DNA of 64,000 nt from a virus. The DNA lies in the IMG/VR virus record IMGVR_UViG_3300034018_000240. One strand, written 5' to 3'. The translations under genes and the position numbers were made by a program. How positions within the stretch are numbered: the first letter of the stretch is position 1; every line of letters begins with the position of its first letter. This document shows, one piece after another, positions 4,041 to 60,100 of this stretch. The notes under the pieces were generated by a model. The model worked only from the letters and a program-made list of their open reading frames with translations, was not told the DNA's origin and ran no database searches.

Positions 4041-4442
4041 TTATTTTACTTCAATGTGATTCCTACCATCATTCCAATAACTTATGTCACCATACCATAC
4101 AAAGATTTCTTCGTCTGGTTGTATGAGCTTTGTAGCAACAAACTCAAATGTGTTGCGTTCTATGTTGGATCTCCAAGCAGCGTTGGCTGTGTCTGAATGA
4201 TTATAGAATGAACCAAACCCACCAGCTACCACTTGTTTCTCCCATCCTGATCCACCACCCTGTGGCCAATTGAATCTGTAATCTATGACACAAGGAGAAA
4301 CTTCTCCATTCTTCATACCTACATCAAAAAAGGGACACTCTTCTATGATGTCCCCTTCAAATATTACCTTGTCTGCAAATACTCCCCAGCCATGTATGCT
4401 GCTTGGAGCCATGTAGACTTTTGTTGATTGATAGATACGCAT
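4041..4442 (-). CDS. SET-domain protein lysine methyltransferase (minimal viral vSET-like, 133 aa)
   Basis: GWGVFADKVIFEGDIIEECP matches the SET N-region (compare chlorovirus vSET GYGVFARKSFEKGELVEEC, quoted from memory). GFGSFYNHSDTANA matches the NHSxxPN pseudoknot motif. EEIFVWYGDISYW matches the EELxxxYG post-SET motif. Size fits minimal viral SET proteins. Confidence 0.8.
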   Translation of the reverse strand: MRIYQSTKVYMAPSSIHGWGVFADKVIFEGDIIEECPFFDVGMKNGEVSPCVIDYRFNWPQGGGSGWEKQVVAGGFGSFYNHSDTANAAWRSNIERNTFEFVATKLIQPDEEIFVWYGDISYWNDGRNHIEVK

Positions 4443-7781: not shown

Positions 7782-8021
7782 TCAATAGTTTTTAAATCTA
7801 ATAAGTTTATACTCATCAGAGCTGATATACATATATCTGCGTCCTTTGATGTGTAATCTCTTAGATGGTTTATAATTTGCTTTCACAGCAAATATACTAT
7901 CTATTAGTTTAGAACAAGAATTAATTGTTCTTCTATAAGAAGAATCTTGTTGGTCTGGTTCGTACACTGTAATTGTATGTGTGCAATGTGGTTTTGCACT
8001 AAAGATTAGGCTGTAAGACAT
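7782..8021 (-). CDS. hypothetical protein (79 aa)
   Basis: Small co-oriented ORF; start preceded by CCAACACACATG, which resembles the AACACAC upstream motif of the 9485 and 9907 genes. Confidence 0.3.
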   Translation of the reverse strand: MSYSLIFSAKPHCTHTITVYEPDQQDSSYRRTINSCSKLIDSIFAVKANYKPSKRLHIKGRRYMYISSDEYKLIRFKNY

Positions 8022-8039
8022 GTGTGTTGGTATTAGTGG

Positions 8040-8348
8040 TTAAAAGAAGAATGTCATACCTGTTTCAGATATCTCTATCTTTGTAGGCTTTCTAAACGTA
8101 ACAGATCTTTTAAGAGGCATCTTTGTAGATACTGTCTTTGTCATAACTGGTTGACGTCTAGTGCGTTGTGGTGCCATGTCTAACATTTTAATGTAAACAC
8201 CATTAACTGGTCTGTTAAGACTGTTAGCTACAAACTTTGATAACTTAGCCATGGACATAGGCTTTGCAGTCTTTTTGTTGTCCATCATCATTGTCTTGAT
8301 TGTTCTTAATTCCTTCTTGGAATAGTTGTTTGATCCTTTCTTTCTCAT
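8040..8348 (-). CDS. hypothetical basic protein (possible later start near 8252-8291)
   Basis: Overlaps the upstream ORF by about 100 nt as drawn. K/R rich. Confidence 0.25.
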   Translation of the reverse strand: MRKKGSNNYSKKELRTIKTMMMDNKKTAKPMSMAKLSKFVANSLNRPVNGVYIKMLDMAPQRTRRQPVMTKTVSTKMPLKRSVTFRKPTKIEISETGMTFFF

Positions 8349-8646
8349 TTTGCTTTATTTTTTTGTTTAGTAAATACTGTTTTCTTTTAATTCTAGCTTC
8401 CTTTCTTTTCTTATTATGTTTCTTATTAATAGGTCCAGCTTGTTGCTGTCTCAATATTTGTTTTGGTGTTGTATCAAGACTAGTTAGCGTTTCACCTATT
8501 TTAGCTGATAAAGCTGTTCTAGGTTTTAATGGTAAAGGTATATTATGATGACTCATATGACCAGTATCAACACTTAAATCAATCTCTTTCACCAAACGTG
8601 GAGGGTTTTTAATCCTTCTCTTTCTTGTATTTCCTTTTAATATCAT
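8245..8646 (-). CDS. hypothetical highly basic protein (133 aa)
   Basis: KKHNKKRKEARIKRKQYLLNKKIKQNEKERIKQ low-complexity basic region. Sits immediately downstream of the 8671-8697 terminator, so probably the first gene of a new transcription unit. Confidence 0.35.
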   Translation of the reverse strand: MILKGNTRKRRIKNPPRLVKEIDLSVDTGHMSHHNIPLPLKPRTALSAKIGETLTSLDTTPKQILRQQQAGPINKKHNKKRKEARIKRKQYLLNKKIKQNEKERIKQLFQEGIKNNQDNDDGQQKDCKAYVHG

Positions 8647-11601: not shown

Positions 11602-11844
11602 ATGGTAGTATTATTACTTGGTTGTATTGTTGGTCTCTTGAGTGTGATTGTAGTGGTATGGGGGTTTGTACACTTTGAGGAGTGGGAGATAGGGATAGAG
11701 TTTCTACCTAAACATTATAACAACTTTGAGCTAGGAATATCGAATAGAAACTACGAGCTGACAGATGGAGGACTAGAGCAAGAGCTTAGAATAGGTCTGT
11801 TATTATTCACCTTTTTAATCATGTTTAGGAGATTTGATGCATAA
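11602..11844 (+). CDS. small hydrophobic (membrane) protein (80 aa)
   Basis: MVVLLLGCIVGLLSVIVVVWGFV... N-terminal TM-like segment. First ORF of the rightward arm; could be spurious. Confidence 0.3.
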   Translation: MVVLLLGCIVGLLSVIVVVWGFVHFEEWEIGIEFLPKHYNNFELGISNRNYELTDGGLEQELRIGLLLFTFLIMFRRFDA

Positions 11845-11907
11845 TATAGCATTAACTTTTATAATAACTAAAATAGTTATTTGTAGATCGTCCAGATATA
11901 CATACCT

Positions 11908-15808: not shown

Positions 15809-18396
15809 TGGCAATTATAAGATACACGAAAGACGCAACAATTAGGTATGCCTACCTTAATATCTTCCCTGATCAGTTCAAGACTGAGAGAGAAAAGATG
15901 GATGAGAGTTGGATTAAAAACACAATGGACTATTTTGCTAACAAGGCATATGCTGAGTATGTTAAGAGCAGAGATACATTTGTTAAAAACTATGACTTAG
16001 TAAAAGGTATTCTAAGAAGAGAAGATTTTTATCAAGAACCAGAAGTAAGAAGTTTTACAGATGTGCTCACAGCAGATTTAGCTCTTCCTGCCTATGTAAA
16101 ACATTATTCTATAATGACCACTCCTATTAACGAGTTAGTAGGAGAAATCTCTAAGAGACCTGACGCATTTCGTGTCAAAGCATTTGATGATGATAGTAAA
16201 GCTGAAGAGCTTGAGTTTAAAACTCAAATGTTAAATGATTATGTAGTTAATACAGCCAAGAGAAAGATATTAGAAAAGGCTGCTATGAATGGAGAAGAGA
16301 TTGAAGAGGAAGAATTAAATCAAATGACTTTAGATCAAGTTAAAGATGAATTAGACTCTTATACATCTACAGCAGAAAAGTGGGCAAACCATATTCTTAC
16401 AGCTCAGAAGGCTGAGTTTAATTTAAAGGAGAAAGGAGAAGACTCTTTTAGAGATCTTTTAATTTCTGCTAGAGAGTTCTTTCACATATATGAAGATAAC
16501 TCTAAGCTTGGATTTAACGTTGAGGTGGCTAATCCTAAGAACACTTGGTTCTTAACTACTCCTGATAGAAAATGGATATCTGATCCTACAGGTCGTGCAC
16601 AAGGTGCATATGCTGCTGGTATTGTACAAGTTATGGAATTGTCTGAGATTATTGAATCTATCCCAGACTTAACTAAAGATGAGATTGATCACTTACGTAG
16701 TTCATTACAAGACTATGGATTGATCAATGTACGTGAATCTAACTTGGGCAATCCTAATGCTATTCCTGGTAATGAATCTATTCAATACGATACATTTGAC
16801 CCATTAGTCTTACAGACTAGAATGATTATTGAGTCTGAGATGAAACAGAATGATGATGGTCTTCAGGACTTCTTAGGACTTACATCTAATGTAAGCTCTT
16901 TTGGTTATAAGTATGTTGTAGTAAGATCTTATTGGATTTCTAAAAAGAAGATAGGTAAAGTTATTTACTTAGATGAGATGGGTAATGAACAGTCTCAACT
17001 TGTAGATGAAAACTATAAATCTGGAATGCTTCCTACACAACAGTCTTTAGAGTGGGGTTGGATTAACCAATGGTATCAAGGTGTTAAAATTGGTCCAGAT
17101 ATCTATCATGTCAAACCTTATAACTTATTACCTTATTGTCCTATCATAGGTCAAACGTTTGAAGTGAAGAACACAGAGGCTAAGAGTCTTGTAGATATGA
17201 TGAAGCCTTTCCAAGTTTTATATAATGTGTGTATGAACCAGTTATATAAATTACTTGAGAAGGAAGTAGGTAAGGTTCAGTTAATGTCTATTAGACATAT
17301 TCCTATTCCTAAAGATGGAGATGCTCAAGATGCTCTTGACATTTGGGAAATGGAAGCTCGTAACAGAGGTGTAGTATTTGTGGATGATAGTCCAGAAAAC
17401 TTAAAGAGCCCAAGCTCATTTAATCAATACACTAGCTTAGACCTTACACGTACGCAGGAGATCCAAGCAAGATACACTCTAGCACAACAACTTAAGAATG
17501 AGTGTTGGGAATTAATAGGTATGTCAAGACAAAGACTTGGTGCTATACAAGCTAGTGAATCAGCTACAGCAACCAATGCAGCCATTACACAATCTTATGC
17601 TCAGACAGAACCTTTATTTGTAGCTCATGAATATATCATGGGTCAATTATATCAATCTATTATTGATGCTGCTTTATATGTAGAAAGTTCTAAACCACAA
17701 TCTACTATTTCTTATGTAAATTCTGAAGGAGAATCTGCATTTGTTTCTGTAAATGGTTCAGACTTACGTTTTAGAGATTTAAAAATATTCTTGACTAACA
17801 GACCTGAAGATAAGCAAATGTTTAATGAAATTAGAGGTTTGTCTCAAGCTGTTCTACAAAATGGTGGTTCATTACATGACATCATTGAGCTTTATAGCAC
17901 TAACTCTATTCGTCAGATGAAGAAGGTGTTCAAAACTCTTAAGAGCAGACAAGAAGAATTGGAAGTTACTAAGTTACAACAACAACAACAACAATTAGAC
18001 CAACAACAGCAACAAGCTGAAGCTCAACTGCAATTACTTCAACAACAACAAGCTGAGAAGATTGCTAATGATAATTATCAAGCTGAGCTTGATAGAATCA
18101 ATAAAAAAGAAATTGCTCTTATTGCAGCAGAGGCTAAGAACATGGGACCATTGAGTGATGAAGATGCTTCTGGTGTTCCTGATGTATTGGAAATCAATAA
18201 GTTAGCTACAGAGGAATCAAAAGCTATAAAAGATTATCAAAGCAAGATGGCTGATATTCAATCTAAGAATAGGATGGCTTCACAAAAACTTGAAGTTGAA
18301 AGAGAAAAATTACAAGTGGCTAGAGAAAACCAAGCAAATGATTTAGCTATTGCTAAGGAAAATGCCAAGGGTAGAGCTGCTAAAAAACCTAAATAA
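15808..18396 (+). CDS. portal protein (862 aa)
   Basis: Position immediately after terL with a TAATG overlap. Size typical of crAss-like portals. C-terminal Q-rich coiled coil (QQQQQQLDQQQQQAEAQLQLLQQQQ). Confidence 0.6.
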   Translation: MAIIRYTKDATIRYAYLNIFPDQFKTEREKMDESWIKNTMDYFANKAYAEYVKSRDTFVKNYDLVKGILRREDFYQEPEVRSFTDVLTADLALPAYVKHYSIMTTPINELVGEISKRPDAFRVKAFDDDSKAEELEFKTQMLNDYVVNTAKRKILEKAAMNGEEIEEEELNQMTLDQVKDELDSYTSTAEKWANHILTAQKAEFNLKEKGEDSFRDLLISAREFFHIYEDNSKLGFNVEVANPKNTWFLTTPDRKWISDPTGRAQGAYAAGIVQVMELSEIIESIPDLTKDEIDHLRSSLQDYGLINVRESNLGNPNAIPGNESIQYDTFDPLVLQTRMIIESEMKQNDDGLQDFLGLTSNVSSFGYKYVVVRSYWISKKKIGKVIYLDEMGNEQSQLVDENYKSGMLPTQQSLEWGWINQWYQGVKIGPDIYHVKPYNLLPYCPIIGQTFEVKNTEAKSLVDMMKPFQVLYNVCMNQLYKLLEKEVGKVQLMSIRHIPIPKDGDAQDALDIWEMEARNRGVVFVDDSPENLKSPSSFNQYTSLDLTRTQEIQARYTLAQQLKNECWELIGMSRQRLGAIQASESATATNAAITQSYAQTEPLFVAHEYIMGQLYQSIIDAALYVESSKPQSTISYVNSEGESAFVSVNGSDLRFRDLKIFLTNRPEDKQMFNEIRGLSQAVLQNGGSLHDIIELYSTNSIRQMKKVFKTLKSRQEELEVTKLQQQQQQLDQQQQQAEAQLQLLQQQQAEKIANDNYQAELDRINKKEIALIAAEAKNMGPLSDEDASGVPDVLEINKLATEESKAIKDYQSKMADIQSKNRMASQKLEVEREKLQVARENQANDLAIAKENAKGRAAKKPK

Positions 18397-18926
18397 TGTT
18401 TGATAAACTGATTGAGATAATAACTAACTGGTGGTTACAACTAACTCCAGTTATTATTGTCAGAGACTATGAAGGAGCTGTATTACTAAGGTGTGGAAAA
18501 TTCTACAGTGTTCTTGAACCTGGACTACATTTTAAGATTCCTTTGTTTGATGAGGTGATAGATCACCATGTAGTAACAACTACCCTTAGTCTTGATGCTC
18601 AATCTTTATACACCTTGGACAAACAAAACATTGTTGTCAAGGGAGTTGTAAAATACAAGATAGCTGATGTAAAGATATTCCTACTTGAGGTATTTGATGC
18701 ACAAGATGCATTGTCAGACATGTCTCAAAGTATAATAAAAAACGTTATTATGTCAATGACCATGGAGGAATGTACAGATCAGGAACTTGACAACACTTTG
18801 ACAAAGAAAGTTAGAGTGGAAGCTAGGAAATGGGGAGTTGAGGTTCAACAAGTTACACTTACAGACCTTGCCCCAATCAGAAGTTATAGGTTTATAAATG
18901 ACAACTTTCTTAACAAATTAGATTAG
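18396..18926 (+). CDS. SPFH / band-7 (stomatin-prohibitin-flotillin-HflK/C) domain protein
   Basis: Hydrophobic N-terminus (LIEIITNWWLQLTPVIIV), then VLLRCGKFYSVLEPGLHFKIPLFDEV matching the SPFH core (compare stomatin VLEPGLHFLIP), and a C-terminal ARKWGVEVQQVTLTDLAP block. Confidence 0.7.
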   Translation: MFDKLIEIITNWWLQLTPVIIVRDYEGAVLLRCGKFYSVLEPGLHFKIPLFDEVIDHHVVTTTLSLDAQSLYTLDKQNIVVKGVVKYKIADVKIFLLEVFDAQDALSDMSQSIIKNVIMSMTMEECTDQELDNTLTKKVRVEARKWGVEVQQVTLTDLAPIRSYRFINDNFLNKLD

Positions 18927-19036
18927 AGTAAAAAATATTAATGCTATATTATATTGAATAATGGTCAATATAAAGGCTCCTCTCTTTGCTATTAACTTAA
19001 GTTACTTTACTTTTACATACAAAACCAATTAAAACT

Positions 19037-19045
19037 CAACTACAT
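19037..19045 (+). promoter_or_regulatory. conserved CAACTACAT element abutting the start codon
   Basis: aaaactCAACTACATATGg. The same 8-9-mer is flush against the ATG at 22109 and 32164. Confidence 0.35.
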
Positions 19046-27207: not shown

Positions 27208-29106
27208 ATGTCTTGTTCTTCTTGCTATCCTAATCCTAATCCTTGTTACACTGCATATTATCAACCTGGTCAAAACTGTGGTTGTTGTGGTGGTGTAGTG
27301 GGTGATTGTGGATGTGTTGGTACTGCTGGCACTGCTGGCACTGGTGGCTGGGGCTGCTGGTGTGGTGCTACAGGCTGTGCAGATGCTCCTTATAATAGTA
27401 ATAATACTGTCTATGTTGGACCTAATCTTCCTAACTCAGGTGTTAACACTTGTGACACTTTAACCACTGCATTAGAAAAAATTGACTATGTAGTAACAGG
27501 TGGTGGAGGTGGTGGAAAAAATGGAACATCAGGAACTAGTGGAACTCCTAGTACAAGTGGTTCTTCTGGAACCTCTGGTTCTTCTGGCTCTAGTGGTGTA
27601 ACTGGTGCTCAAGGTGCTGCTGGTGTAAATGGTACAGCAGGTTCTTCTGGTACATCAGCTTTGTCTGGTTCTTCTGGATCTTCTGGAAGTTCAGGAACTG
27701 CTGGTAAAAATGGTTCTAGTGGTGTTGATGGTAGTTCTGGAATCAGTGGTAGTAGTGGTACAAGTGGAAATTCAGGATCAAGTGGTAATAGTGGTACAAG
27801 TGGTACTGATGGCTCTAGTGGAACAGCAGGAACAGCAGGAACAGCAGGAGCTGACGGAGCTAATGGAAGCAGTGGCACAAGTGGTCAAAATGCAACCAGT
27901 GGTACAGCAGGACTATCAGGTGATAAATATGCTACAACATCAGTTAGCTCATTTACACTAGGAAGTGGAGGTACAATTACTGTTGGTACAGGACTTTCTT
28001 ATACCATAGCACAATCTGTATTAATTTCATTTAATGGATCAAACTATCAAACTTCTCCAGTTACATCTTATAACTCTGGAACAGGTGTTTTAGTTTTAGG
28101 TACACCAAGTGCTACTGTAGGTTCAGGAACTTATAGTTCTTGGACAGTTAACTTAGCAGGAGCTGCAGGTGGTAATGGTTCTAGTGGTACTTCTGGTTCT
28201 TCTGGAACAAATGGTACAGCTGGTACTAGTGGTACGTCTGGTACAGCTGGTACTTCTGGTACTAATGGAACAACTGGCACTTCTGGAACAACAGGTACAA
28301 GTGGAACAAATGGAACTTCTGGTTCTAGTGGTACTAGTGGTACCAATGGAACAACTGGTACAAATGGATCATCAGGGTCTAGTGGATCTTCAGGTTCATC
28401 TGGCTCTTCTGGATCATCAGGTAGCTCTGGATCTTCTGGGGTTAGTGGTACTAGTGGATCTTCTGGTGTATCTAATAGTATTTCTGGTGCTACTAATCAA
28501 GTTCTTAAATATAGTAGTGCTACTTCTGCTGTAGGATGTTCTATATATGATGATGATAATTATACATCAATAGGTGGTCCTAATCCAGGATCAAGACTTA
28601 ATGTATATCTAGGTAATGGTCAACCAGCAGGAAACTATGTTGCAGATTTTGCAGGCATAGAACCATACGTTACAGTTAGAGCATTAGGTGGTAGTAATAC
28701 TGCTACATTACAATTACTTCCTACATCAGGTTATACAGCATTTATTGGTAACTATAATGGTGGAGGTGTGATAATTAGAGCAATGAATGCTGATGTGGTT
28801 ACAATTGATTCATCTGGTGTTACAGCTCCAGCATTTTTTGAAACTTCTGATATTAGGTATAAGGATGTATTAGAATGGAACCCAGAAATAAATGTGCTTG
28901 GAATAGATGTAATTAAATTTAAGCGTACTGATATTGTAACTAATACAATTAACTATGGTTATTCAGCTCAACAAGTACAAGAAATTATTCCTGATGTTGT
29001 TAATGAGATAGATGAAAAGTTAAGTGTAAACTACATAGCTGTTCATACATTAAAGATAGCAGCATTAGAAAAACGTATTGCAGAACTTGAAGCTAAATTA
29101 AAATAA
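27208..29106 (+). CDS. collagen-like tail fibre with C-terminal S74 intramolecular-chaperone autopeptidase domain
   Basis: Cys-rich N-terminus. Two long (G-X-Y)n tracts (about 27520-27930 and 28140-28490). C-terminus SDIRYKDVLEWNPE...GYSAQQVQEIIPDVV...LKIAALEKRIAELEAKLK matches the endosialidase-chaperone pattern (SDxRxK...GxiAQEvqevlPelV...coiled coil). Confidence 0.75.
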   Translation: MSCSSCYPNPNPCYTAYYQPGQNCGCCGGVVGDCGCVGTAGTAGTGGWGCWCGATGCADAPYNSNNTVYVGPNLPNSGVNTCDTLTTALEKIDYVVTGGGGGGKNGTSGTSGTPSTSGSSGTSGSSGSSGVTGAQGAAGVNGTAGSSGTSALSGSSGSSGSSGTAGKNGSSGVDGSSGISGSSGTSGNSGSSGNSGTSGTDGSSGTAGTAGTAGADGANGSSGTSGQNATSGTAGLSGDKYATTSVSSFTLGSGGTITVGTGLSYTIAQSVLISFNGSNYQTSPVTSYNSGTGVLVLGTPSATVGSGTYSSWTVNLAGAAGGNGSSGTSGSSGTNGTAGTSGTSGTAGTSGTNGTTGTSGTTGTSGTNGTSGSSGTSGTNGTTGTNGSSGSSGSSGSSGSSGSSGSSGSSGVSGTSGSSGVSNSISGATNQVLKYSSATSAVGCSIYDDDNYTSIGGPNPGSRLNVYLGNGQPAGNYVADFAGIEPYVTVRALGGSNTATLQLLPTSGYTAFIGNYNGGGVIIRAMNADVVTIDSSGVTAPAFFETSDIRYKDVLEWNPEINVLGIDVIKFKRTDIVTNTINYGYSAQQVQEIIPDVVNEIDEKLSVNYIAVHTLKIAALEKRIAELEAKLK

Positions 29107-48566: not shown

Positions 48567-51161
48567 ATGGCATCGTTTACTGATAAATCCTTACAATTCA
48601 ACCCTTACATCCAAGAGCTCCCTGTGGAGGCCATGGTGCAAGTGGGCATGCAAAAGCAAGCCCAGTATGATCAAGGTGTGCAAAAAATTCAGAATGAAAT
48701 TGATCGAGTTGGTGGTATAGAATTATACAGACCCCAAGACAAACAGGTATTACAATCTAAACTCAATGAGTTAGGTAGTAGATTAAAGACTGTGGCAGCA
48801 GGAGACTTTTCTAATCAACAACTAGTTAACTCAGTTGCTGGTATGACAGGTCAAATTATTAAAGATGAAAACATCATAAACGCTGTATCATCTACGCAAC
48901 AATATAAAAAAGCTGTTAAGGAAAGAGAAGAATATCTAAAAGATGGCAAGACTTCTCCATCAAATGACTGGTTGTTTCAACAAAAAACTAACAAGTGGAT
49001 GAATGGAGATGTAAAAGAAACATTTAGTGGAGGGTATGATCCATACACAAACTGGAGAAAAAATGCATTAGATATTATAAAGGATCTCACTGGAGATTCA
49101 ACTATTACAGAAGAAGATTTTACAACAGTTGTTGGTGAAGATGGGAAACCTCAAGTGGTCTTAGCAGATGCTACTACAAGAACAAAACTTGCAGGTGTGT
49201 CTCCTGACCAAATCAAACAAGCACTATCTGTAGGTTTAACACCTGCTGATTGGAGACAGTTAGAGATAGATGGTGTATATACATATAGTAATGTTACTGA
49301 TCCTAATTTATTTAAAGAGAATGTTAATAGTGAATACTTAGATAAGTCTGAATACTTCACTAAACAAAAACAAGCTCTTGAGAATTCTTTAAGTTCTACA
49401 AATTCAAATGTTCAGAAACAAATGATTCAAGATAAGATAAATGGTCTTGATTCTACAATTAACAAACTTAATAAAGAAAGAGATAGTATATTAGGTCTTG
49501 TTGATAGAGGAGATTTGGAAAGAGCTAAGGCAAACTTATTTACTCTTAACTCTATTAACAACTTTGCTAAACCTTTCTCTCATACAGAAGTTGAGATCAC
49601 AAAAGAAGATAGTCCTGCAGCTCAAATGCAAATGCAAAGGGAAACAAAAAATCAAGCTTGGAAGATACATAAAGATAATATGTATTGGAAGTCAAGAGAA
49701 GTCAAAGCTGCAGAAGAGGCTAATAAAATAGCAAAGAAAACAGCAGAAGGATATGGTGCTTTTGCAGCTCCTGTAGATCAGGATACTCTTCCTAAATTAA
49801 CTGTTGGTGAACTTACAAGAACAACAGATATAGAGTTAGGTAAAATTAAAGATAGAGATGAAGCTTTTTTAAAGTCTCAAGGTAAAACTAAAGAATGGTT
49901 TGAACAACAAAGAGCTGCGTGGGAAACAAGACCTACAGGGGTTAGTCCTGTTGTAGCTAACTATTTTAATACTACAGAAAAAGAAAGAAGACAAGCTGAA
50001 GCTAATCAAGAATTAATATTAGATGTTAGAAGAAAGGCAGAAGCTGAACATGGTACAATAGATAAGCTTATTCCTAAAAATGCTCCTACTGTTACTTATA
50101 AAAAAGGTAATGAAGTATATCAATATACAGCTAAAGACTTTGTAGACTTTAATACAGTAGCATATAAATATAGAGGTACTGGTGGTGGTACAGCTCCAGG
50201 TGGAGGATCTGTTGTTGGTATGGCAGGAACTCCTGTAGCTTCAGCAGATGCTAAAGCTAGACAAGAGTTAAGTCCTAAGATGTATAACTTGTATAAGATT
50301 TGGAGTAAGATGCCAGCCAAGAGATATGATTCTGACAAGGTTATATTAGCTCAACTAGACAATTATGCAAAGACTGTAAATAAGCCTTATAAAGAAACCT
50401 TACAAAAGATTGATAAGACTATGGAAGATACTTTTAAAAATAGGATTTCTGTAAGTCAAGCTGCTGGATATAACATCCCTTCAATAACTCCTGCTCAAAA
50501 AGGAAGTTTAAAAAGCTTTTTAATTGCTGCTGCTGCTGCTGCTGAGAAGAGTGGTGGTAAACTTGCAGGCTCTCCTGATTTTAATGTTGAGACTGCTAGA
50601 GAAATTGCAGGATCAGAAAATCCAAACTTTTCAATAGATGTTGCTGAAGGCACTGAATTCCAAGAACCTTATTATAAAGTTACAGCTGTTGGTCCAGGAG
50701 GAAAAGCAACTAGTTTTAGATTAACTCCAGAACAAAAAATAGGAGGCTTTGGTACTCAATTTGATGATGTAGCATCACAACAACTAAGACCATATTTAGA
50801 TCAAATAAATAAAACAGGAGGAATGACCACTGCCAAAGATGGTAGTGCCAGGACAACTGTTAGCAATGCTTTCTTAGGTAATCTTGATTTTGAAAATGTA
50901 AGAACCTATGGTGTGAAAGCAAATATCATACAACTTAGTCCAGGCAATTATACACTAGGTATCAAAGCATATGATCCTATAAGAAGAAGTTGGACTACTG
51001 ATGAGATGTACTATCCAAGTGTAGGAAGTATGACTAAGGAAGGACTTAACATGGCTATAAAAAATATGAATGATAGTGAGATATTTAGATTGATAAATGA
51101 AAGACCAGCAACAGCTGGTGACTTACAAAAAATACAAAAAGCTTCTCAAAAACCTTTATAA
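48567..51161 (+). CDS. large virion protein of unknown function (864 aa)
   Basis: Long ORF, TAATG-coupled to the giant ORF downstream. Confidence 0.55.
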   Translation: MASFTDKSLQFNPYIQELPVEAMVQVGMQKQAQYDQGVQKIQNEIDRVGGIELYRPQDKQVLQSKLNELGSRLKTVAAGDFSNQQLVNSVAGMTGQIIKDENIINAVSSTQQYKKAVKEREEYLKDGKTSPSNDWLFQQKTNKWMNGDVKETFSGGYDPYTNWRKNALDIIKDLTGDSTITEEDFTTVVGEDGKPQVVLADATTRTKLAGVSPDQIKQALSVGLTPADWRQLEIDGVYTYSNVTDPNLFKENVNSEYLDKSEYFTKQKQALENSLSSTNSNVQKQMIQDKINGLDSTINKLNKERDSILGLVDRGDLERAKANLFTLNSINNFAKPFSHTEVEITKEDSPAAQMQMQRETKNQAWKIHKDNMYWKSREVKAAEEANKIAKKTAEGYGAFAAPVDQDTLPKLTVGELTRTTDIELGKIKDRDEAFLKSQGKTKEWFEQQRAAWETRPTGVSPVVANYFNTTEKERRQAEANQELILDVRRKAEAEHGTIDKLIPKNAPTVTYKKGNEVYQYTAKDFVDFNTVAYKYRGTGGGTAPGGGSVVGMAGTPVASADAKARQELSPKMYNLYKIWSKMPAKRYDSDKVILAQLDNYAKTVNKPYKETLQKIDKTMEDTFKNRISVSQAAGYNIPSITPAQKGSLKSFLIAAAAAAEKSGGKLAGSPDFNVETAREIAGSENPNFSIDVAEGTEFQEPYYKVTAVGPGGKATSFRLTPEQKIGGFGTQFDDVASQQLRPYLDQINKTGGMTTAKDGSARTTVSNAFLGNLDFENVRTYGVKANIIQLSPGNYTLGIKAYDPIRRSWTTDEMYYPSVGSMTKEGLNMAIKNMNDSEIFRLINERPATAGDLQKIQKASQKPL

Positions 51162-54100
51162 TGGCAGATACTCCTTTAATAGACAGGGCATTATTAGATT
51201 CATCATTGAATGATTATACACCTACTGAACTTCCTGAAAGACCTGCAAGTGTTCCTTATCAAAGCTTGCGAAGTCAATACGAAGGAACTGGTATTCCTAT
51301 GATGGATGGAGAACCTACTCCTACTGCATTAAGTGCTCTTGAGAATGCTGTATTAACTGCAGGTAGAAATGATGGTAAGAAGATGGCAGGTGGCATTGAT
51401 AGAACTTTAACAGAGGTAAGTAGTGATAGATATAAGAGCTTCATGCCTGGTGATTATAATAATGAAGATGCTTATGCTCAAAGTCAAAGTTGGGCTAGTA
51501 AAATGGTTAATGGTGTAGGTAAAGGTTTAGTTCTTACAGGAACTACTTTCTTACAATCTACTGTAGGACTAGTAAATGGTCTAGCTAACTTTGCAAACTC
51601 TGGAAGATTTGCAGATATTTATGATAATGACATGAATAGGTTTTTAGATGAGGAAGTTGTAAAGGCTTCTGAAAACATAATGCCTAACTATTATAAAGCA
51701 GGAGAAAGAGAACAAGATTGGTATTCTCCAAGTAAGTTATTTAGTGCTAACTTTATTTGGGATGGAGTTGTTAAAAACTTAGGCTTTGCTGCAGGTGCTG
51801 CATTGTCAGGAGGAGCATATGCTGCTGCTCTAAAATCAATCCCTCTTACAGCTAGACTGTTCTCAGTGGGTAAGGGTGCTCAAGCTTTAGCTGCTTCAGA
51901 AGAAGCATTGCTTGCTGCAGATAAAGCAGCTTCTACTTATGGTAAACTTAAAGGACTTTCTGATAAGTTTTTATCATCTTATAGCTCATTAGGTCAAGGA
52001 GGTAGAATTACTGTTGCAGCTTTAGGTACAGTGGGTGAGGCTGGCTTTGAAGCATACCATACGCTTAATGATTTTAGAAATAAAAAGATTGAAGAATATA
52101 AAGAAGCAAATGGTGGTCAAGCTCCTATGGGAGAAGATCTGTTAAAGATTAATCAACTTTCTGAAGAAGTGGGTAATTCTTCTTACTTTGCAAACGTTGG
52201 TTTATTAACTGCTACTAACTATATTCAGTTTCCTAAAATACTAGGAGCTACATACAAAGGGGAGAAAGGGATTGTTAATTCTCTTACAAAAGAAATTGGT
52301 GAAATTACAACAGACGCTACTGGTAAATATATAGCAGCTCCTAATAGATTTGGAAAAATCTTATCTACATTAAATAAGGTGAGACCATATACCTTCTCTG
52401 CTTCAGAAGCATTTGAGGAAGGTGCACAATACGCAATTGGCAAATCTACAGAAAACTATTACAATAAGAAATATAACAACGAACCAACTAATTGGTTAGA
52501 TGGTGTTGCTGCAGGAATTAGTGAAACATTAACTACTAATGAGGGTATGGAGAACATACTTATTGGTGGATTGTCTGGAGCATTAATGTTAGGTCCTGGT
52601 AAGTTTGGTGAAGCAAAAGAAAAGTCAAAGAATACACAAGCTGCTATTACAGAATTTAATAATGCTATCTTGTCTGACTTCTCTAAAGAAGTTAAAGGAT
52701 CTGTTAATAGAGGTACAACTATACAAGAGGAAAGAGAAACAGCAATAAGAAGAGGTGATATTCTAGAGAGCAAAGACTTAGAGCGTGATTACATAATCAA
52801 CTATCTAACTCCTCGTATTAAGTATGGTAGATTTGATCTTGTTCAAAGCGACATTGCTCAGTATAAAACTCTAGCAATGACTGATGAGGGATTTGCACAG
52901 TTACAATCAGAAGGTAAGGCATTAGATACAGATACTAAAGAAGCATATCTACAAAGATTAGCTAACTTAGAAGTTACTGCTCAGAACATTAAATCATTAT
53001 ATCAATCATTAGATGTACGTTATGGTGGGTTAGTAAATGCTGATGGTAAGCCTGTCTATTCACCAAAGGTGATGGATCAGATGATATATGCTGCAACTAA
53101 GGTGGCAGACTATGATGAAAGACTTCCTCAATTAATGACAGTGTTAGATGCTGTAGGTATTGATACTACTACTGTTGTTAATGACTTAACTAATGGAGAC
53201 AGTGATTCTTACATAGCAGCTGTTGAAAAAATTAAGGCATCAAAGTCTATTAATGAAGATGAATTAATGCAGACATTAGAAGATGTTGCAGAGCTTGCTT
53301 TGCGTAGAGACAACTTCTTGTTTGAATATAATGATATAAAGAACAATCCTAGTAAGTATGACACTGCAGAAACTATGGATAAAGATGCTCCAAAGAAAGA
53401 AACTGTAAAAGTTAAGACTAAGGATGGTGAAGAAGATATTGAAGTAGATACAGAATACTACTTAGGTAGAACTGTTAAGTATGACAAAGATGGTAATGAG
53501 GTTTATGGATTTCCAAGATTAACTATCCTTGGAGAAAATGAAGATGGTACTATTAAGATTAAGGATTCTAATGGTGTTGTAAGAGACATCTCTAAAGAAG
53601 AATTAGCTGGCTATAAATTAGGCAAAGTGTCAGACACTTTAAATAATAAAAAAGCCAAATACTATATGGAACATAGTAACACTGTGTTTCAATTTAACTT
53701 TGGTAAAGGTAAGAAAGTTAAAGGTAGATTAGAATACTCCCCTAAAGATGGAGTATTAAACTTTGTGTACAGAGACACTAAAGGAAAGATTAAATCTATT
53801 GAGGTTACAGGTAGTCAATTTGTAGCTCAAGAAGGATATGATGTTCCTATGATTATGGCTGTTGGTGAACTTACACCAATTCAAAAACAAGCATTAGATG
53901 AATTTGTTAGTTTAAAAGAATCAAAATTTTCTGCTAAAAGAGAAGCTAGATTAAAAATACTAAATGACATGTTTGATGAAACATCATCAAAGCTAATGTC
54001 TACACAAAAGTTATTAGAACAAAAATACAATGAACTTGAGAAGATAACAGGCGATCTTACTAATGTTGAAACCAAGCTTAAGGCTGGTGAGATGACTAAG

Positions 54101-57100
54101 AAGAATGCGTTCAAAAAAACCACAGCCAACGCACTTAGAGCTGCAAGTAAATTATCTAAACTAAGAGATAAGTTAATTGATGAGATTAGAGAATTAGAAT
54201 CTCAACAAGAAGAACTTGAGTTTACACAAGCTTACATTGCTGACATGGTTCAGAATATAGGTGAGCTTCCTGCAGAAAGTGAAGACTTTATCAATGAATT
54301 AAAAGAACAAAAGTCTCTTGTTGAAGATTTAATATTAGATACTGGTAAAAATATTAATGCTTTGTCTAAGCTCTTAACTAATGTTGAGAAAGCTTTAGAT
54401 ACTGCTGTAGATTTGGCATTAGATCTGATTAAGAAGTTTGAAGCTAAATATCCAAACTTACCTTACACTCCATTAGCTTTACAAGAATATTTGAATGCTA
54501 ATCCAGAAGTTAGAAGAAATAACCCTGAATTAATGTCAGACTTAATTGAGTTTGAAAGAGATCTTGCCAATATTGATGAGTTAGATGTAACTCCTAATGA
54601 ACGCAGTGTTGCTGAATTAAGAGAAGAGTTACAAGGTTTACAAGATCAGTTAAAGGAATATGAGCAAGACTTAAAAGCTAGAGAAGCAATTTTAACTAGA
54701 TTTCAAGATGTTGCTAAAGCTTATAAGTTACAGAAAGAACAAGAGAAAAAGTTAAAGAGTGATGGTAAACTTATTAATGCAGTTATTGGTACATTAAGTA
54801 AGGAACAATTAGACAATACTCCATATAGTGTTAAGTACGAACCTACTTCTAAGAAAGGTCCAAAGATATTAGTTACATCTACTGTTGCTAGTAAGAATAT
54901 ATTAGGCTATGCACGTGCAAATTACTTTGGTAATAAGTTCAACTCATTCCCTAATAAGAATAATATATTTGGTGTCTTAGTTACTTCTGCAAATGAAGAC
55001 AACATTATACCAGGACTTACTTCATATTTACAGAACAACAATACAGACATAGATCCAACAAAAACTATTGCATTAGTAATGGTTGAGGATCAAGGCAATG
55101 GTAACTTTGTATTGGTAGGTCAAGATGGGCAACCTCTTGCAGAAGGCCAAGATAAGTTAGAGAATGCTGTATTCCAAGTAATGCCTGACGAGAGTTTACA
55201 ATGGGGTCCTGACTTTGGTAATGAAACAATGTTCAGAAGCAACACACCTGAGCAAACTAGAAAAGAGTTAAAAGATCAATACATTGCTTTCAGAAATGAA
55301 ACATTAAAAGATCCTGCTGTTAGATTACAATCAATCACTCCTTCTTTTGGAAGACCTACTAGAGTTAGTATTACATTACCTGATGGTAAGAAGGTTACTG
55401 ATCCAAGTGCTGCTGTGTCTGTAAAGGCTGCTGGATTAATTGAAGACAAAGACTTAGTTGAAAAGCAGTTAATTGAAGTGCCTACTGTTGCAAAAGATAT
55501 TAGTAAAGGAAGCACAGAGTTTACAGATGTGCTTGGTAGAATATTCTTAGTATTAGATAATGCTTATGTTAAGTTAAAGAACAGACTGTTCAATACTAAA
55601 GAAGCTGAAACTATCTATGAGGTTCTTAATCAATTATCTAACAATGTGTTTGATGATGGTGGTGTAGAAGCTAGAAGTGAATATTTAATTGACTGGTTAA
55701 GAAGTGTTACATTCTGGGGCAAACCTAAAGAAGGCAAAGACCCTGGTTATAATAGTATATGGTTTGAGAGAGCAGATGGTGAATTAAGATTGTTCTTCTC
55801 TGGTAAAGGAGAGAGTCTTTCTTTTACACCACAAGCAATGGAAACTCAGAAAGATGCAATTGTCACTCTTCTACAAAACATGTACAATAATGTTAATGCT
55901 AGAAAGGTACAAAACACAGATGAATATAATTTAACATATGAAGAAATCATAGGTATTGGTGAGAATGGTATTCCACAAACAAAAGAATGGCAAAACTATC
56001 AAACATATTTGTTATCAGATGAGGGAAGAACAGCTGATGAGATTCCTTTGTTTACTGATATTACTGCGTTAGAATCTCCTGAAGATACTAATAGAGAGGG
56101 TGTATACTTTACACTTAGCGATGCTGCTGACAACTTTACTATTACAGAGATAGTTAGAACTGTGCCTAAGACTGTTGTTCCTGGTGGCATTAAGCCTACA
56201 GCTGCAACACCTGTTTCTGCAGAAGAAGAAACATTTACTGTAGGAGAAACACAAGAAGCTCCAATAGAAACTAAGACTGGTTCAAAGTTTGTATTAGATG
56301 GTAAGACTAAGAATATATTTATTACTCCAAAGGGAACTAGAATAGCTTTCACAGCTAATCGTAATTTATTGGCTAAAGGAGATATTGATAATGGTATTAA
56401 GATATTAAAAGGAGAAGACTTAGCTAAAGCTGAGGAAGCTTTAATTGCTGCAAATGTTAAGAAGGAAGATATGGGAAGAGCTTTAAAAGCTCCTATTGCT
56501 AACTTCTTAAATGTACCTGTACAGAAGGCAACTGCTGTAGAAGAAGATGAAGAAGCTTTTGCAATACCTGATGAAACAGATGCAGATGATGTAGTAATAG
56601 AGATTGAAGAAAAGGCACCAGCACAAATTACAACAAAGGGCCCTAGTGTAAGAAGTGGTGCTATAAAAGAAGCATTATTAGAAGATGAAGATGGAGACTT
56701 ACGTGAGATATTAGAGAATGAAATAAAGACATTCAAATCTGAAAACTGGAAGAAGTTAGAACAATGGTTAAGAGCTAATCTACCTAACGTTCCTGTATAT
56801 AGAGTGAAGAATGTTATCAAAGCTACAGGGGGAAGAAAGGCTTGGGGTATGTATAAGAATGGTGCTATCTATGTATACACTAATGCAGAGGCTGGGACAA
56901 CATATCATGAAGTGTTTCATGCTATCTGGAATATGTTCTCTGACCCTAAGGAACGCAAGGCTATTGTAAATGAATTCAAGAATAGAAAGGGCAGCTTTGT
57001 AGATAGAGTTACAGGACAAGAAGTTAAATACTCAGAAGCAACTCCTGGTCAAATCAAGGAACAACTAGCAGAAGAGTTTAGAGAATATGTATTAGATAAG

Positions 57101-60100
57101 AAAGTTCCACCTAAGCCTGCTGATGGTAGACCTTACATCATTAAGTTATTTACTGATTTAGCAAACTTTATTAAGGAATATTTCTTAGGTCCTCAAGCTG
57201 CAAGAAACACAGAAGAGTTATTTAAGAGAATAGGAGAAGGTTATTATAAGAACGCATCTCCATATCAGTCTAAGTTAGCATTAGCTAAACCTGGTATTAT
57301 TGATGTTGAAGATGCTATAGGCGACCCAACTAGTGAGTATAGTTTAATTGCTAATGGTCTTACAGGAGAACAAGTACATGATACTATTCAACAAATGACC
57401 TATTCTACTCTTACAAATCTTATTGCTACTAATCAAAGCCTATTTGATATCCCTGCTAAGAACAGAGCTGTAATATATAAAGAAGCTAAAGATAATCTTA
57501 AGTATACAGTTGTAGATAAGATTAAGAACATTGCTGCTAAACTAATGAAAGAAGGTATTGCTACAAAAGAAGATGTAGCTCCTGAGGTAGCAAAAGCTGA
57601 GCAGTTGTTTGCAATCATAGATAAAAACTGGGATGAGATAACTCAAATCTTTGAAGAACAATTATTATCTTATTCTATTGAATTTGATGAGAATGACAGT
57701 ACTCAAACAACAAATGAGAACAATACAGGTAGAGGAGACTATCAAGAGTCAGAGAAAATAGACAAGTTTAAGAAGGCTAACGCTGCTATTAAATTATTGT
57801 TAGCTACCATTCCATACAGAAATGCAAGAGGTAAAAGAACACTTTCTTCAATCAATGGTGTTAGATTAATACCAATGAGCAAGGTGTATATAGACCTTAA
57901 GAATGCTTTATACAACTCAGATACAGTAGATGATATGATGGAAAAACTACGTGAGTTTGTAGAGTCTCAAAAACCTGAATATGGTGTAATATACCAAAGA
58001 CTTACAGGACAACCTTCTTCTGAGAAGTTGAATCCTTATGCTAATATAAAAACTGATGCAGATCTTCAACTGGTTACTTCTTTCTACAATGTAATGAAGG
58101 GACAAGCTCCTGACGTGGTTACAGTGTACACAGCTCCTGATGGAACTGTAGTGACAACTGATATGTCTGTAGGCACAGCATCTAAGCAAATTGCTATTGA
58201 TATGGAAAACAGTATCATTAGCTCTATACAAAAGAACTTAGGAAAGTACTATAGATATGATGCTCCTAACAAAATGTACGTAGCTATTAAGAAGAACATT
58301 GAGAATCAACAGTTAGGATCATTAGAAAGAAGTGTATTATTTATGAAGTCTTTAGGAGTGGATGTTCCTATTAGAATGATTAGAAGACTTGGCTTTGAAT
58401 CTGACTTTAACAAAGCTGTTGCTGGTATAAAGAAGAACTTATTAGAAGCTGAGCAGATTAAGTTTATTTCTAGTAAGACAATTAACACTGCAGGTAGAGT
58501 TAAGGAGATTGCTGACATGCTTGCTAAGATTCAAAATCCTGACTTTGAAAGTACATATTTTAACCTTGAAGGTGATAGAGTACAGTCTTTCATAGGTGGT
58601 AATGCTATTAGTAGCTTACGTGATTTCTTAACTAAGATAAGCAATAAGAAACAATTAGTTGGCTCTAGATATGAATACTTACTTACAGATAACTTTGCTA
58701 ACATTGGTTCTGTATTCATGGACAAGATATTTGATAAAGATTCAGGAAACAAATTACCTAAGGGTGATGAGATATTAAGCACAGCGTATGCAGGTGGTAT
58801 GATTGATGAGGGTCTTGGCAAAAGAAAAGACCCAGCTAGTCTTACACCTAGTGAGCGTTTGAAGGAAGAGTTAAACCTTAACCTAGCAGGATACTATATG
58901 AACCTTGTTCCAGGAGATGCCTCTTTGGACTGGGCAAACTATGTAGGTAATACAGTTACATTAAATAGTTTAAAGAAAGACAATAGCTCAATACATAAAG
59001 TATTTAAAGGATACTTCTTGTCAGAGTTAGCTGTTTCTAGAGAAGGTCGTAAGATTGTACAAGATGAGAACGAGACTAGAAAGTCTACAGACCTGCGTTT
59101 CTTCAAGAATATATTAGGACCATCATTACATGAAGATATTGTATCATATGATCCAAGCAAAGAGAAATCTCTTGAGGATGTTTACACACACTTTGAATCA
59201 AGAATAAACACTGCTATAGACGCATTTGTTAAGAAGGATATTGAGAGAAGAAAAGCTGTGTATTCTAATTACAATATTCTTTCTGAAGATGAGAATGGTT
59301 TTAACTTTAATGGAGTGGAATTTGAAAAGAAAAGATCTTTAAGTGAGAATGATGTTGATGTGAATATCAAGTACTTATCTGTTAACTATATGATTAATAA
59401 CATAGAGTTACATAAACTTGTATACTCAGATCCATATTTCTACAAAGATGAATTGAAGCGTATTAAGAGTTTTTTATCTCCACGTCAGGCTATCATATAT
59501 GGTTCAGCAGGTTTAAATGCTGTAATGAATAATGTATATAATGATGACTATACAGATATTGATGATCTTGGATACACTGACTTCACAGCTGACTATTTCA
59601 AAACCATCACATTAGAGGATGTCAAAGGTGTAGCAGATGTAGAAGGATTTGCTAAAGAGTATTCATCATTCACTGAAACAGATGGTGGTGGTATGATTAG
59701 TATGCAAGCATATCGCAACTTTAGAATACGTGCTTCAAATTGGAACCCTAATGAGGAAAGACAATACAGATATGATGTTGCTTTTGAGAAAAGAGACAAG
59801 GGTCAGGACCTTTCTCCTAATGAATCAAATTTATTAGAAGCAGGCAATCCTCAAGTAAAGAGTGCATACACTCCATTGAAACCAGTTGTAGCTGGGGCTA
59901 AGATGAGTAAACAATCTTACAATGATGTTGTATTAGATAAGTTTGCCCTTTATCCATTGAGTTACAGAGTGTTACATGAGATTAATAAAGATTCAAATGC
60001 TATCAAGTTATACAACAAGATGCAGAAAGATAAGATTGACTACGCTGTATTTGACAGTGGTAGAAAGGTGGGGGCTGATGTATTAGTTAAATTATATGAT

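Follow-up and report, generated by a model that had tools for sequence, protein, structure and literature searches.

The 64,000-nucleotide stretch of IMG/VR virus record IMGVR_UViG_3300034018_000240, referred to below as the window, is part of a genome estimated at roughly 105–117 kb, has a G+C content of about 35%, and carries a gene for a 176-residue SPFH (band-7) protein, here called mini-SPFH. As the preliminary description of this DNA had stated, the gene lies between the portal gene and a scaffold-like gene (Table 1). The large terminase gene (terL) upstream is the first cistron of a coupled terL-portal-SPFH unit, in which the terL stop codon and the portal ATG overlap by 1 nt (TAATG), and the portal stop codon and the SPFH ATG overlap in the same way. 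Downstream lie the scaffold-like gene, the major capsid protein (MCP) gene and, farther on in the window, genes for the CrAss ring proteins 1 and 2 and the muzzle protein, and the surroundings of the SPFH gene are a crAss-like virion module. The scaffold-like protein has an acidic N-terminal half and a Q-rich coiled-coil region, its putative scaffold function being read from position and composition. None of the GenBank phages is close to the window at the DNA level, and the nearest annotated portals, those of cr10_1, Leptolyngbya phage Lbo-JY46, and Cellulophaga phages, are 22–28% identical.

Table 1. Coordinates of the mini-SPFH gene, its parts, and the adjoining packaging and head genes in the window
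Feature	Position	Strand	Basis
Large terminase (terL), 680 aa	13766..15808	+	PHROG 6681 terminase large subunit, E=1.4e-85
Portal, 862 aa	15808..18396	+	Pfam P22_portal 5.9e-17; PHROG 6547 portal 1.8e-97
Mini-SPFH gene, 176 aa and stop, ATG start	18396..18926	+	Open reading frame (ORF); Pfam Band_7
N-terminal amphipathic helix, residues 2–16 (FDKLIEIITNWWLQL)	18399..18443	+	AlphaFold2 helix; Kyte–Doolittle; hydrophobic moment
SPFH1/SPFH2 core, residues 19–160	18450..18875	+	Pfam, PDB alignments (residues 19–162), AlphaFold2 secondary structure
VLEPGLHFKIP, residues 39–49	18510..18542	+	Within SPFH core
Short C-terminal tail, residues 161–176	18876..18923	+	S163/R165 conservation
Conserved intergenic spacer, 119 nt	18927..19045	+	Alignment of 11 clade members
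Scaffold-like gene, 427 aa	19046..20329	+	PHROG 16294; BLASTP to cr10_1 pre-MCP gene
Major capsid protein (MCP), 517 aa	20365..21918	+	Pfam Crass_capsid 1.3e-27; PHROG 11589 major head protein

The affiliation with SPFH proteins had been proposed in the preliminary description from a VLEPGLHFKIP core, which is present, and it is upheld by Pfam, by the AlphaFold2 model, and by structure comparison. The Band_7 family (PF01145) matched residues 21–160 through profile positions 2–147 of 176, its score of 90.8 bits (E=1.4e-25) being above the gathering cutoff of 23.6, and was the only significant domain, with no prohead protease or head-completion domain in the 176-aa protein. Among PDB sequences phmmer matched stomatin (4.5e-12), QmcA (4.9e-9), HflK (1e-7), and also HflC. 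A first AlphaFold2 run on a shallow alignment (23 sequences, 84–99% identical) gave a mean predicted local distance difference test score (pLDDT) of 52 and its model was discarded, while the run with 130 diverse family sequences reached a pLDDT of 95 and a predicted template modelling score of 0.84. In this model a helix at residues 2–16 is followed by beta strands within residues 19–89, helices within 92–144, a strand at 148–160, and a tail (161–176) of lower confidence (pLDDT 62–78). The SPFH fold, composed of SPFH1 and SPFH2 and of alpha/beta type, is assigned with high confidence.

At both ends the protein departs from canonical SPFH architecture. The 18 residues ahead of the first SPFH strand, at the place where canonical SPFH proteins have a membrane anchor, form an amphipathic helix with a hydrophobic moment of about 0.5, which contains D3, K4, E7, N11, Q15, and a WW pair. 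The hydrophobic N-terminus described earlier corresponds to this helix and not to a transmembrane (TM) segment, as the best 19-residue Kyte–Doolittle mean is 1.22, against about 1.6 for a TM helix, and neither an N-terminal TM helix nor a hairpin is found. Judging by its sequence, in-plane, peripheral membrane binding by this helix is possible. At the other end the protein terminates 14–16 residues past the SPFH domain with no coiled coil or cap, the model contains no long C-terminal helix, and a conserved 16-residue tail stands in place of these canonical parts. The matched chains of solved ring- or cage-forming SPFH proteins are 255–420 aa long and align over the SPFH half only, with a TM-score relative to the target of about 0.5 (stomatin, HflK/C, QmcA, prohibitin, erlin, and flotillin), and the canonical Bacteroidota comparator, a 313-aa SPFH protein of Aquirufa, has a genuine TM helix and a coiled coil of about 130 aa. 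The window protein is an SPFH core without TM anchor, coiled coil, or cap, and the idea of a cage put forward in the preliminary description depends on the very coiled coil and cap that are absent from it.

SPFH proteins are universal membrane organisers, and recent cryo-electron microscopy revealed closed cages built by their coiled coils. Stomatin (human STOM; the Pyrococcus PH1511 core domain), with matched chains of 255–308 aa, possesses a hydrophobic membrane hairpin and C-terminal helices forming a 16-mer cage, whereas the phage protein has the amphipathic helix and the 16-residue tail. PH1511 pairs with PH1510, an NfeD/STOPP protease partner, while no such partner of the phage protein was found in the window. 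The SPFH core of the Escherichia coli FtsH-modulating HflK/HflC cage is homologous (NCBIfam hflK, E=4e-20, positions 2–147 of 261; Foldseek 4e-13), but the HflK/HflC equivalog cutoffs are missed (TIGR01933, 72.3 vs 159.4 bits; TIGR01932, 48.1 vs 134.4), both profiles being matched over their SPFH portion only, and HflK/HflC is a K/C pair with TM helix, coiled coil, and cap, whereas the phage protein is the product of a single gene without these. The SPFH domains of HflK/C lie in the periplasm, which the phage protein cannot reach because it has neither signal peptide nor TM helix. QmcA of the E. coli SPFH–NfeD pair QmcA-YbbJ faces the cytoplasm, as the phage protein must, and shares the SPFH core (phmmer 4.9e-9; Foldseek 8e-12), but it has 305 aa, a TM helix, and a coiled coil and forms a 26-mer with NfeD, and no NfeD-like gene occurs among the window ORFs scanned. 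FliL has an SPFH-like domain without coiled coil; its similarity is much weaker, with no sequence relationship, and unlike the phage protein it is TM-anchored and periplasmic.

Among viral proteins the full-length SPFH/band-7 products (PHROG 200 "lipoprotein"; OLIVR1, Pasto, pVa5, and StarPlatinum; ORFs of T4-like RB43, 44RR, and Aeh1; giant viruses) share with mini-SPFH a domain of unassigned function, but their known lengths are about 260–500 aa (BFVD targets), many are described as membrane proteins or lipoproteins, and identity is at most 35% over part of the domain. The viral structure in BFVD that best matches mini-SPFH is that of A0A6J7WFI0, annotated as an "HflK protein" (173 aa) of an uncultured Caudovirales phage; it shows the same mini architecture end to end (TM-score 0.87/0.88 over 173 columns, 28% identity) and belongs to the same family. 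In the literature phage SPFH genes are treated as morons or lipoproteins of unclear role, and no functional test of any phage SPFH protein was found; a 2026 Crassvirales preprint contains only an SPFH-like BACPHLIP domain hit without location or test. Two apparent literature matches were rejected, since "band 7" in a phiCbK paper is a gel band and the CRISPRi-ART match to "prohibitin" is the word "prohibiting". Phage SPFH genes as such were already known, and what is new here is a truncated, phage-specific subfamily, which in this clade lies within a head/packaging operon.

Scanning of IMG/VR revealed 165 contigs that encode a relative, and more were added by further scans and contig look-ups. 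The SPFH-scaffold-MCP order was kept in all 80 fetched loci (72–92% SPFH identity), the portal gene directly preceded the SPFH gene in 78 of the 78 loci reaching far enough upstream, the same order was found in more divergent members down to 61% SPFH identity, and more than 100 contigs overall share it. All clade members are exactly 176 aa long with both termini conserved. At the portal–SPFH junction the genes overlap by 1 nt in 44 loci and are separated by 2–6 nt in 54 (together 98 of 104). Every close relative examined has the gene in its head module, so that it is not recent cargo in this clade, which was the question left to synteny in the preliminary description. The pairwise ratios of nonsynonymous to synonymous substitution (dN/dS, NG86), to be read as relative values only since dS is saturated, were 0.08 for SPFH, 0.08 for terL, 0.09 for the portal, 0.06 for MCP, and 0.16 for the scaffold-like gene. 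Given its value of about 0.08, the SPFH gene is functional and under strong purifying selection in the clade, and neutral hitchhiking is ruled out by the same value. Thus, a mini-SPFH gene is fixed in the packaging/head operon of one abundant environmental crAss-like lineage.

The spacer downstream of the gene was aligned for 11 clade members. It contains an invariant 15-mer, TTAATGCTATATTAT, at 18938–18952, followed by a variable palindrome-like stretch and then by TCTTTG-N19-TAC-TTTTAC, and in the clade both the 15-mer and the last block show no variation, even with synonymous sites saturated. The last block resembles the Bacteroidota −33/−7 promoter and is regarded as a putative promoter. 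One further exact copy of the 15-mer, and no more, is present in the window (11841–11855, minus strand), inverted and located in the divergent early/late switch region between minus- and plus-strand gene blocks, and it is probably a phage regulatory site. With this arrangement the SPFH gene would close the terL-portal-SPFH translational unit, and the scaffold-like and MCP genes would be under their own strong promoter.

Such a position would suit a portal or procapsid assembly factor that is co-produced with the portal, is absent from the finished virion, and represents a clade-specific co-option; it might tether the portal/scaffold initiation complex to the inner membrane or form a transient ring aiding the portal dodecamer. 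In T4, as a loose analogy, gp40 and the membrane assist initiation on the gp20 portal. In favour of this explanation are the invariant place between portal and scaffold-like genes in the clade contigs examined, the 98 of 104 junctions that overlap or are at most 6 nt apart, and purifying selection as strong as on terL and portal. If true, it would mean a new morphogenetic principle and an SPFH role without precedent in virus assembly. The site itself, however, also accepts other genes. In five loci of the clade an extra small coupled gene with TAATG overlaps on both sides lies at the portal–SPFH junction: a 66-aa ORF (MLEFRNPIPVVVEN...) in four (L078, 7802–8001; L104/L069, 6882–7081; L110, 9802–10001) and, in L117 (8708–9134), a 142-aa ORF with an Endonuclease VII/HNH-type motif (...DHCH...GLLC..CN...). 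Because of these insertions the 3' end of the portal gene is considered an insertion hotspot, and a hotspot that has taken up an Endo VII/HNH-like gene within the clade speaks against a dedicated assembly function of its occupant.

The comparison with other crAss-like phages points in the same direction. In Lbo-JY46 and Cellulophaga phi17:2 the slot is empty, the portal gene being followed straight by a gene for about 376–407 aa and then by the capsid gene. In cr10_1 the slot holds a 432-aa protein annotated as "peptidase" and a 75-aa regulator, and the annotation was rejected, as Pfam found no protease domain in the 432-aa protein and only a weak aRib signal was present. In PhiCrAssBcn23, of the PhiCrAss001 genus, a 203-aa GIY-YIG-like gene has the same 1-nt overlap with the portal; it was considered as a divergent mini-SPFH and dismissed with an hhalign probability of 0.9% against the family profile. 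Since the 427-aa protein of the window is weakly homologous to the cr10_1 pre-MCP gene product (BLASTP E=6e-7) and gives a weak colinear match to the Lbo-JY46 pre-MCP gene, the order portal, scaffold-like gene, MCP is taken as the ancestral crAss layout, and by these sequence comparisons the site just after the portal appears as a variable insertion slot. A tblastn search with the SPFH protein against 50,697 GenBank phage records, 129 of them with a homologous portal, gave no crAss-like match. Thus, the more distant crAss-like phages, although their portal, scaffold-like, and MCP genes are homologous, assemble without mini-SPFH, and this counts against the assembly factor.

The expectation that this slot normally holds a prohead protease was not borne out, since the crAss-like relatives have an empty slot or unrelated insertions, and no supported protease was found there among the distant crAss-like phages compared. 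The suggested pairing with a protease likewise failed to appear: a Pfam search of 50 window ORFs (plausible genes of at least 90 aa within the 64 kb) detected no protease and no NfeD domain, and the only SPFH–protease pairing seen was in a distant family member (L126), where a trypsin-like protease adjoins the gene. The interpretation given in the preliminary description is in this way partly supported, and mini-SPFH is a defined 176-aa candidate and not a missing protease, its specific mechanism being a matter of inference. The structural atlas of PhiCrAss001 mentions neither protease nor scaffold (PMC10172136).

The location in the head module also raises the question of packaged internal cargo, or a cage inside the capsid, that would be carried into the next host cell. 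The cargo proteins of crassviruses amount to several MDa (PMC10172136), and a full-length SPFH lipoprotein, listed under miscellaneous functions, was detected at low count (3 spectra) in a particle preparation of a Vi01-like phage. On the other hand, mini-SPFH lacks the coiled coil or cap with which cages are built, and the known PhiCrAss001 cargo proteins identified by virion mass spectrometry (gp45, gp46, gp47, gp49, and gp50) are encoded elsewhere, are unrelated, and include none described as SPFH (PMC10172136). Moreover, the coupling to terL and portal suggests a low copy number, and the family spans very different capsid types and gene contexts, as described below. A cargo role is considered highly improbable.

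An exhaustive phmmer search over 1.84 billion representative proteins gave 4211 matches at E≤1e-3 and 763 representative clusters at E≤1e-10. Almost all of the best 150 matches have 165–190 aa and align from residue 1 to about 170 with 31–49% identity, while the best 120 matches listed by a profile search of an indexed protein database consisted of the 176-aa clade only. The family has the N-terminal consensus M-[FL]-[DE]-[KR]-L-I-[DE]-[LF]-[LI]-x-x-[FI]-W-[ED]-x-[LIF]-x-P and the C-terminal motif S-x-R-[LI]-[IF], seen in the tail of the window protein as S163-x-R165-[LF]-[IF]; S163 is invariant in the clade (alignments A1 and A2) and in a 12-sequence family sub-alignment (A4), and among the 130 aligned family sequences (A3) R165 reaches a conservation of at least 90%. 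Acidic residues are conserved on the polar side of the helix (positions 3, 7, and 14), TM-like N-terminal hydrophobicity (1.6) is reached by only 18% of the members, and true TM segments occur in a few (P0190, P0166). The N-terminal helix and the C-terminal motif are kept whatever the phage type. According to these alignments the family is a large, phage-borne, distinct, and nearly unstudied branch of mini-SPFH proteins of about 175 aa from uncultured phages, in which hundreds of 50%-identity phage clusters have been reduced to the SPFH core, the helix, and the tail, the last two being conserved.

The mini form is close to absent from cultured phages (the same 50,697 GenBank phage records). 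Pattern scans of 185,579 species-representative genomes, which detect only close relatives of the query, found no more than one canonical host SPFH protein and a phage contig in a Sediminibacterium metagenome-assembled genome. This 59-kb contig (L130; JBBAJX010000014.1) is a member of the phage clade with the terL-portal-SPFH-scaffold-MCP order and an MCP 95% identical; its presence in the assembled genome of a freshwater Bacteroidota is a weak host clue and likely a binning artefact. The IMG pipeline labels clade members as "regulator of protease activity HflC". Two weak matches in human-gut "Bacteriophage sp." contigs (H2 and H4) were set aside as not relevant, as they encode full-length SPFH proteins of 301 and 363 aa. 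In an environmental podovirus (L083; MW202733.1) the coding sequence of a "prohibitin-like protein" at about 7950–8495 is apparently truncated at its 5' end, since the tblastn alignments of family members begin some 130 nt ahead of the start codon given in the record, and an upstream start would restore the conserved N-terminal helix.

The genomic contexts of distant members are phage-like, varied, and outside head modules. In the podovirus just mentioned the gene stands directly after terL. Elsewhere it lies between endonuclease I and a DnaG-type primase (L118), the slot that in T7 belongs to the gene 3.5 lysozyme; behind DUF6549, Metallophos, and a 178-aa ORF (L125); between a 3-TM protein and a RecA-like ATPase followed by DUF932 (L086); at the end of a late block about 3 kb downstream of an Amidase_2 endolysin (L121); among small ORFs near cyanophage-type auxiliary genes (L123); in a small divergent cassette between structural blocks (L122); and downstream of a capsid block (L124). 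In L084 (1398–2368) it follows Metallophos and precedes a 58-aa lipobox lipoprotein (…LTGC) overlapping a 99-aa coiled-coil protein with an N-terminal TM segment, a pair that in sequence resembles o-spanin/i-spanin. In L126 (9773–12255) a 73-aa holin-like ORF with a C-terminal TM segment is followed by the SPFH gene, the trypsin-like protease, which has a signal-peptide-like N-terminus, a Peptidase_M15_3 endolysin, and a 135-aa TM protein, and by its gene content this neighbourhood resembles a lysis cassette. A small membrane protein or lipoprotein occurs within one or two genes in roughly half of the listed contexts, and an endolysin within 3.5 kb of mini-SPFH in three.

The non-capsid surroundings of distant members in unrelated phages argue against a capsid-bound function. 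The same family with the same terminal motifs, far from portal and capsid genes in unrelated phages, weighs directly against the assembly factor, which is regarded as rather unlikely for the clade protein. Its more specific form, a transient SPFH ring or membrane dock where the portal dodecamer and scaffold nucleate the procapsid, is compatible with the invariant order, the coupling, and the terminase-level selection, but the non-capsid family contexts argue against it as well and make it decidedly improbable. The helix and tail are kept across phages with very different capsids and gene orders, which argues for a shared host or membrane partner rather than a particular capsid; most likely, what these parts touch is a feature shared by the hosts or inherent in the protein itself, such as a membrane surface or a host membrane complex.

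Other roles in host takeover or conflict are conceivable as well, namely, superinfection exclusion, anti-defence action on a membrane sensor or effector, or a decoy of host SPFH proteins. In the clade the SPFH protein diverges faster (61–92% identity) than MCP (92–99%), across phages its gene behaves as a movable accessory gene at module boundaries, and the treatment of phage SPFH genes as morons in the literature fits such a role. Nevertheless, no PADLOC defence family was matched by the 176-aa protein (one borderline value, E=0.0099) or by three other family members, the low dN/dS gives no gene-level sign of diversifying selection, and the gene would be expressed with the late genes, whereas anti-defence genes are usually early. 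This group of functions is considered improbable.

The preferred reading, to which we give a probability of about 40%, is that mini-SPFH is a non-structural, late-expressed accessory factor at the cytoplasmic face of the host inner membrane. As the last cistron of the terL-portal-SPFH unit it would be made late and in roughly portal-like, that is, low, amounts, and the promoter-like spacer would separate its gene from the scaffold-like and MCP genes, whose expression is high. Through the helix and its WW pair the SPFH core would be docked at the membrane surface, where the core may bind or organise a membrane client. This client could be a host SPFH/FtsH-type quality-control complex, which mini-SPFH, having no coiled coil, might join without closing it, or the clients may be membrane or lysis proteins of the phage. 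The predicted effect would be that envelope integrity or proteolysis is kept in check during head assembly and packaging. If action on host SPFH/FtsH or on lysis timing is true, mini-SPFH would be a compact natural probe of the SPFH core without a cage.

Several points weigh against this membrane-associated accessory factor. Membrane binding and client are both predictions, and a polar face of acidic character is uncommon in helices that bind anionic bacterial membranes, so that the helix may rather serve as a protein–protein interface. The invariant position and tight portal coupling, with synonymous sites saturated, form the pattern expected of a morphogenetic gene. Furthermore, the lysis and membrane neighbourhood of the distant members, seen across only about 12 independent contexts, is no more than suggestive, and in the clade itself no membrane or lysis gene adjoins, unlike in several distant relatives.

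Some other features of the module and the window were observed. In two members of the clade (L095 and L112) terL is only 56–57% identical to that of the window, while the portal is 82% identical, which is typical of the clade; the MCP of L112 is 96% identical, and the L095 locus stops before MCP. These identities suggest that terL was replaced by recombination within the module. On the minus strand of the window, in the replication/early block, 4041–4442 encodes a 133-aa SET-domain protein (Pfam SET, E=4e-13), a putative lysine methyltransferase, and a SET-domain protein is encoded too by the unrelated phage contig L121, which carries mini-SPFH. A single plus-strand ORF of 4145 aa at 51161–63598 has no Pfam match at E≤0.01 and could be, by position, the giant virion-packaged RNA-polymerase-type protein typical of crAss-like phages. 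Finally, the 632-aa product of 27208–29106 (plus strand) contains collagen triple-helix repeats (E=1e-28) and a weak signal of the Peptidase_S74 intramolecular chaperone at its C-terminus and is probably a tail or head fibre.

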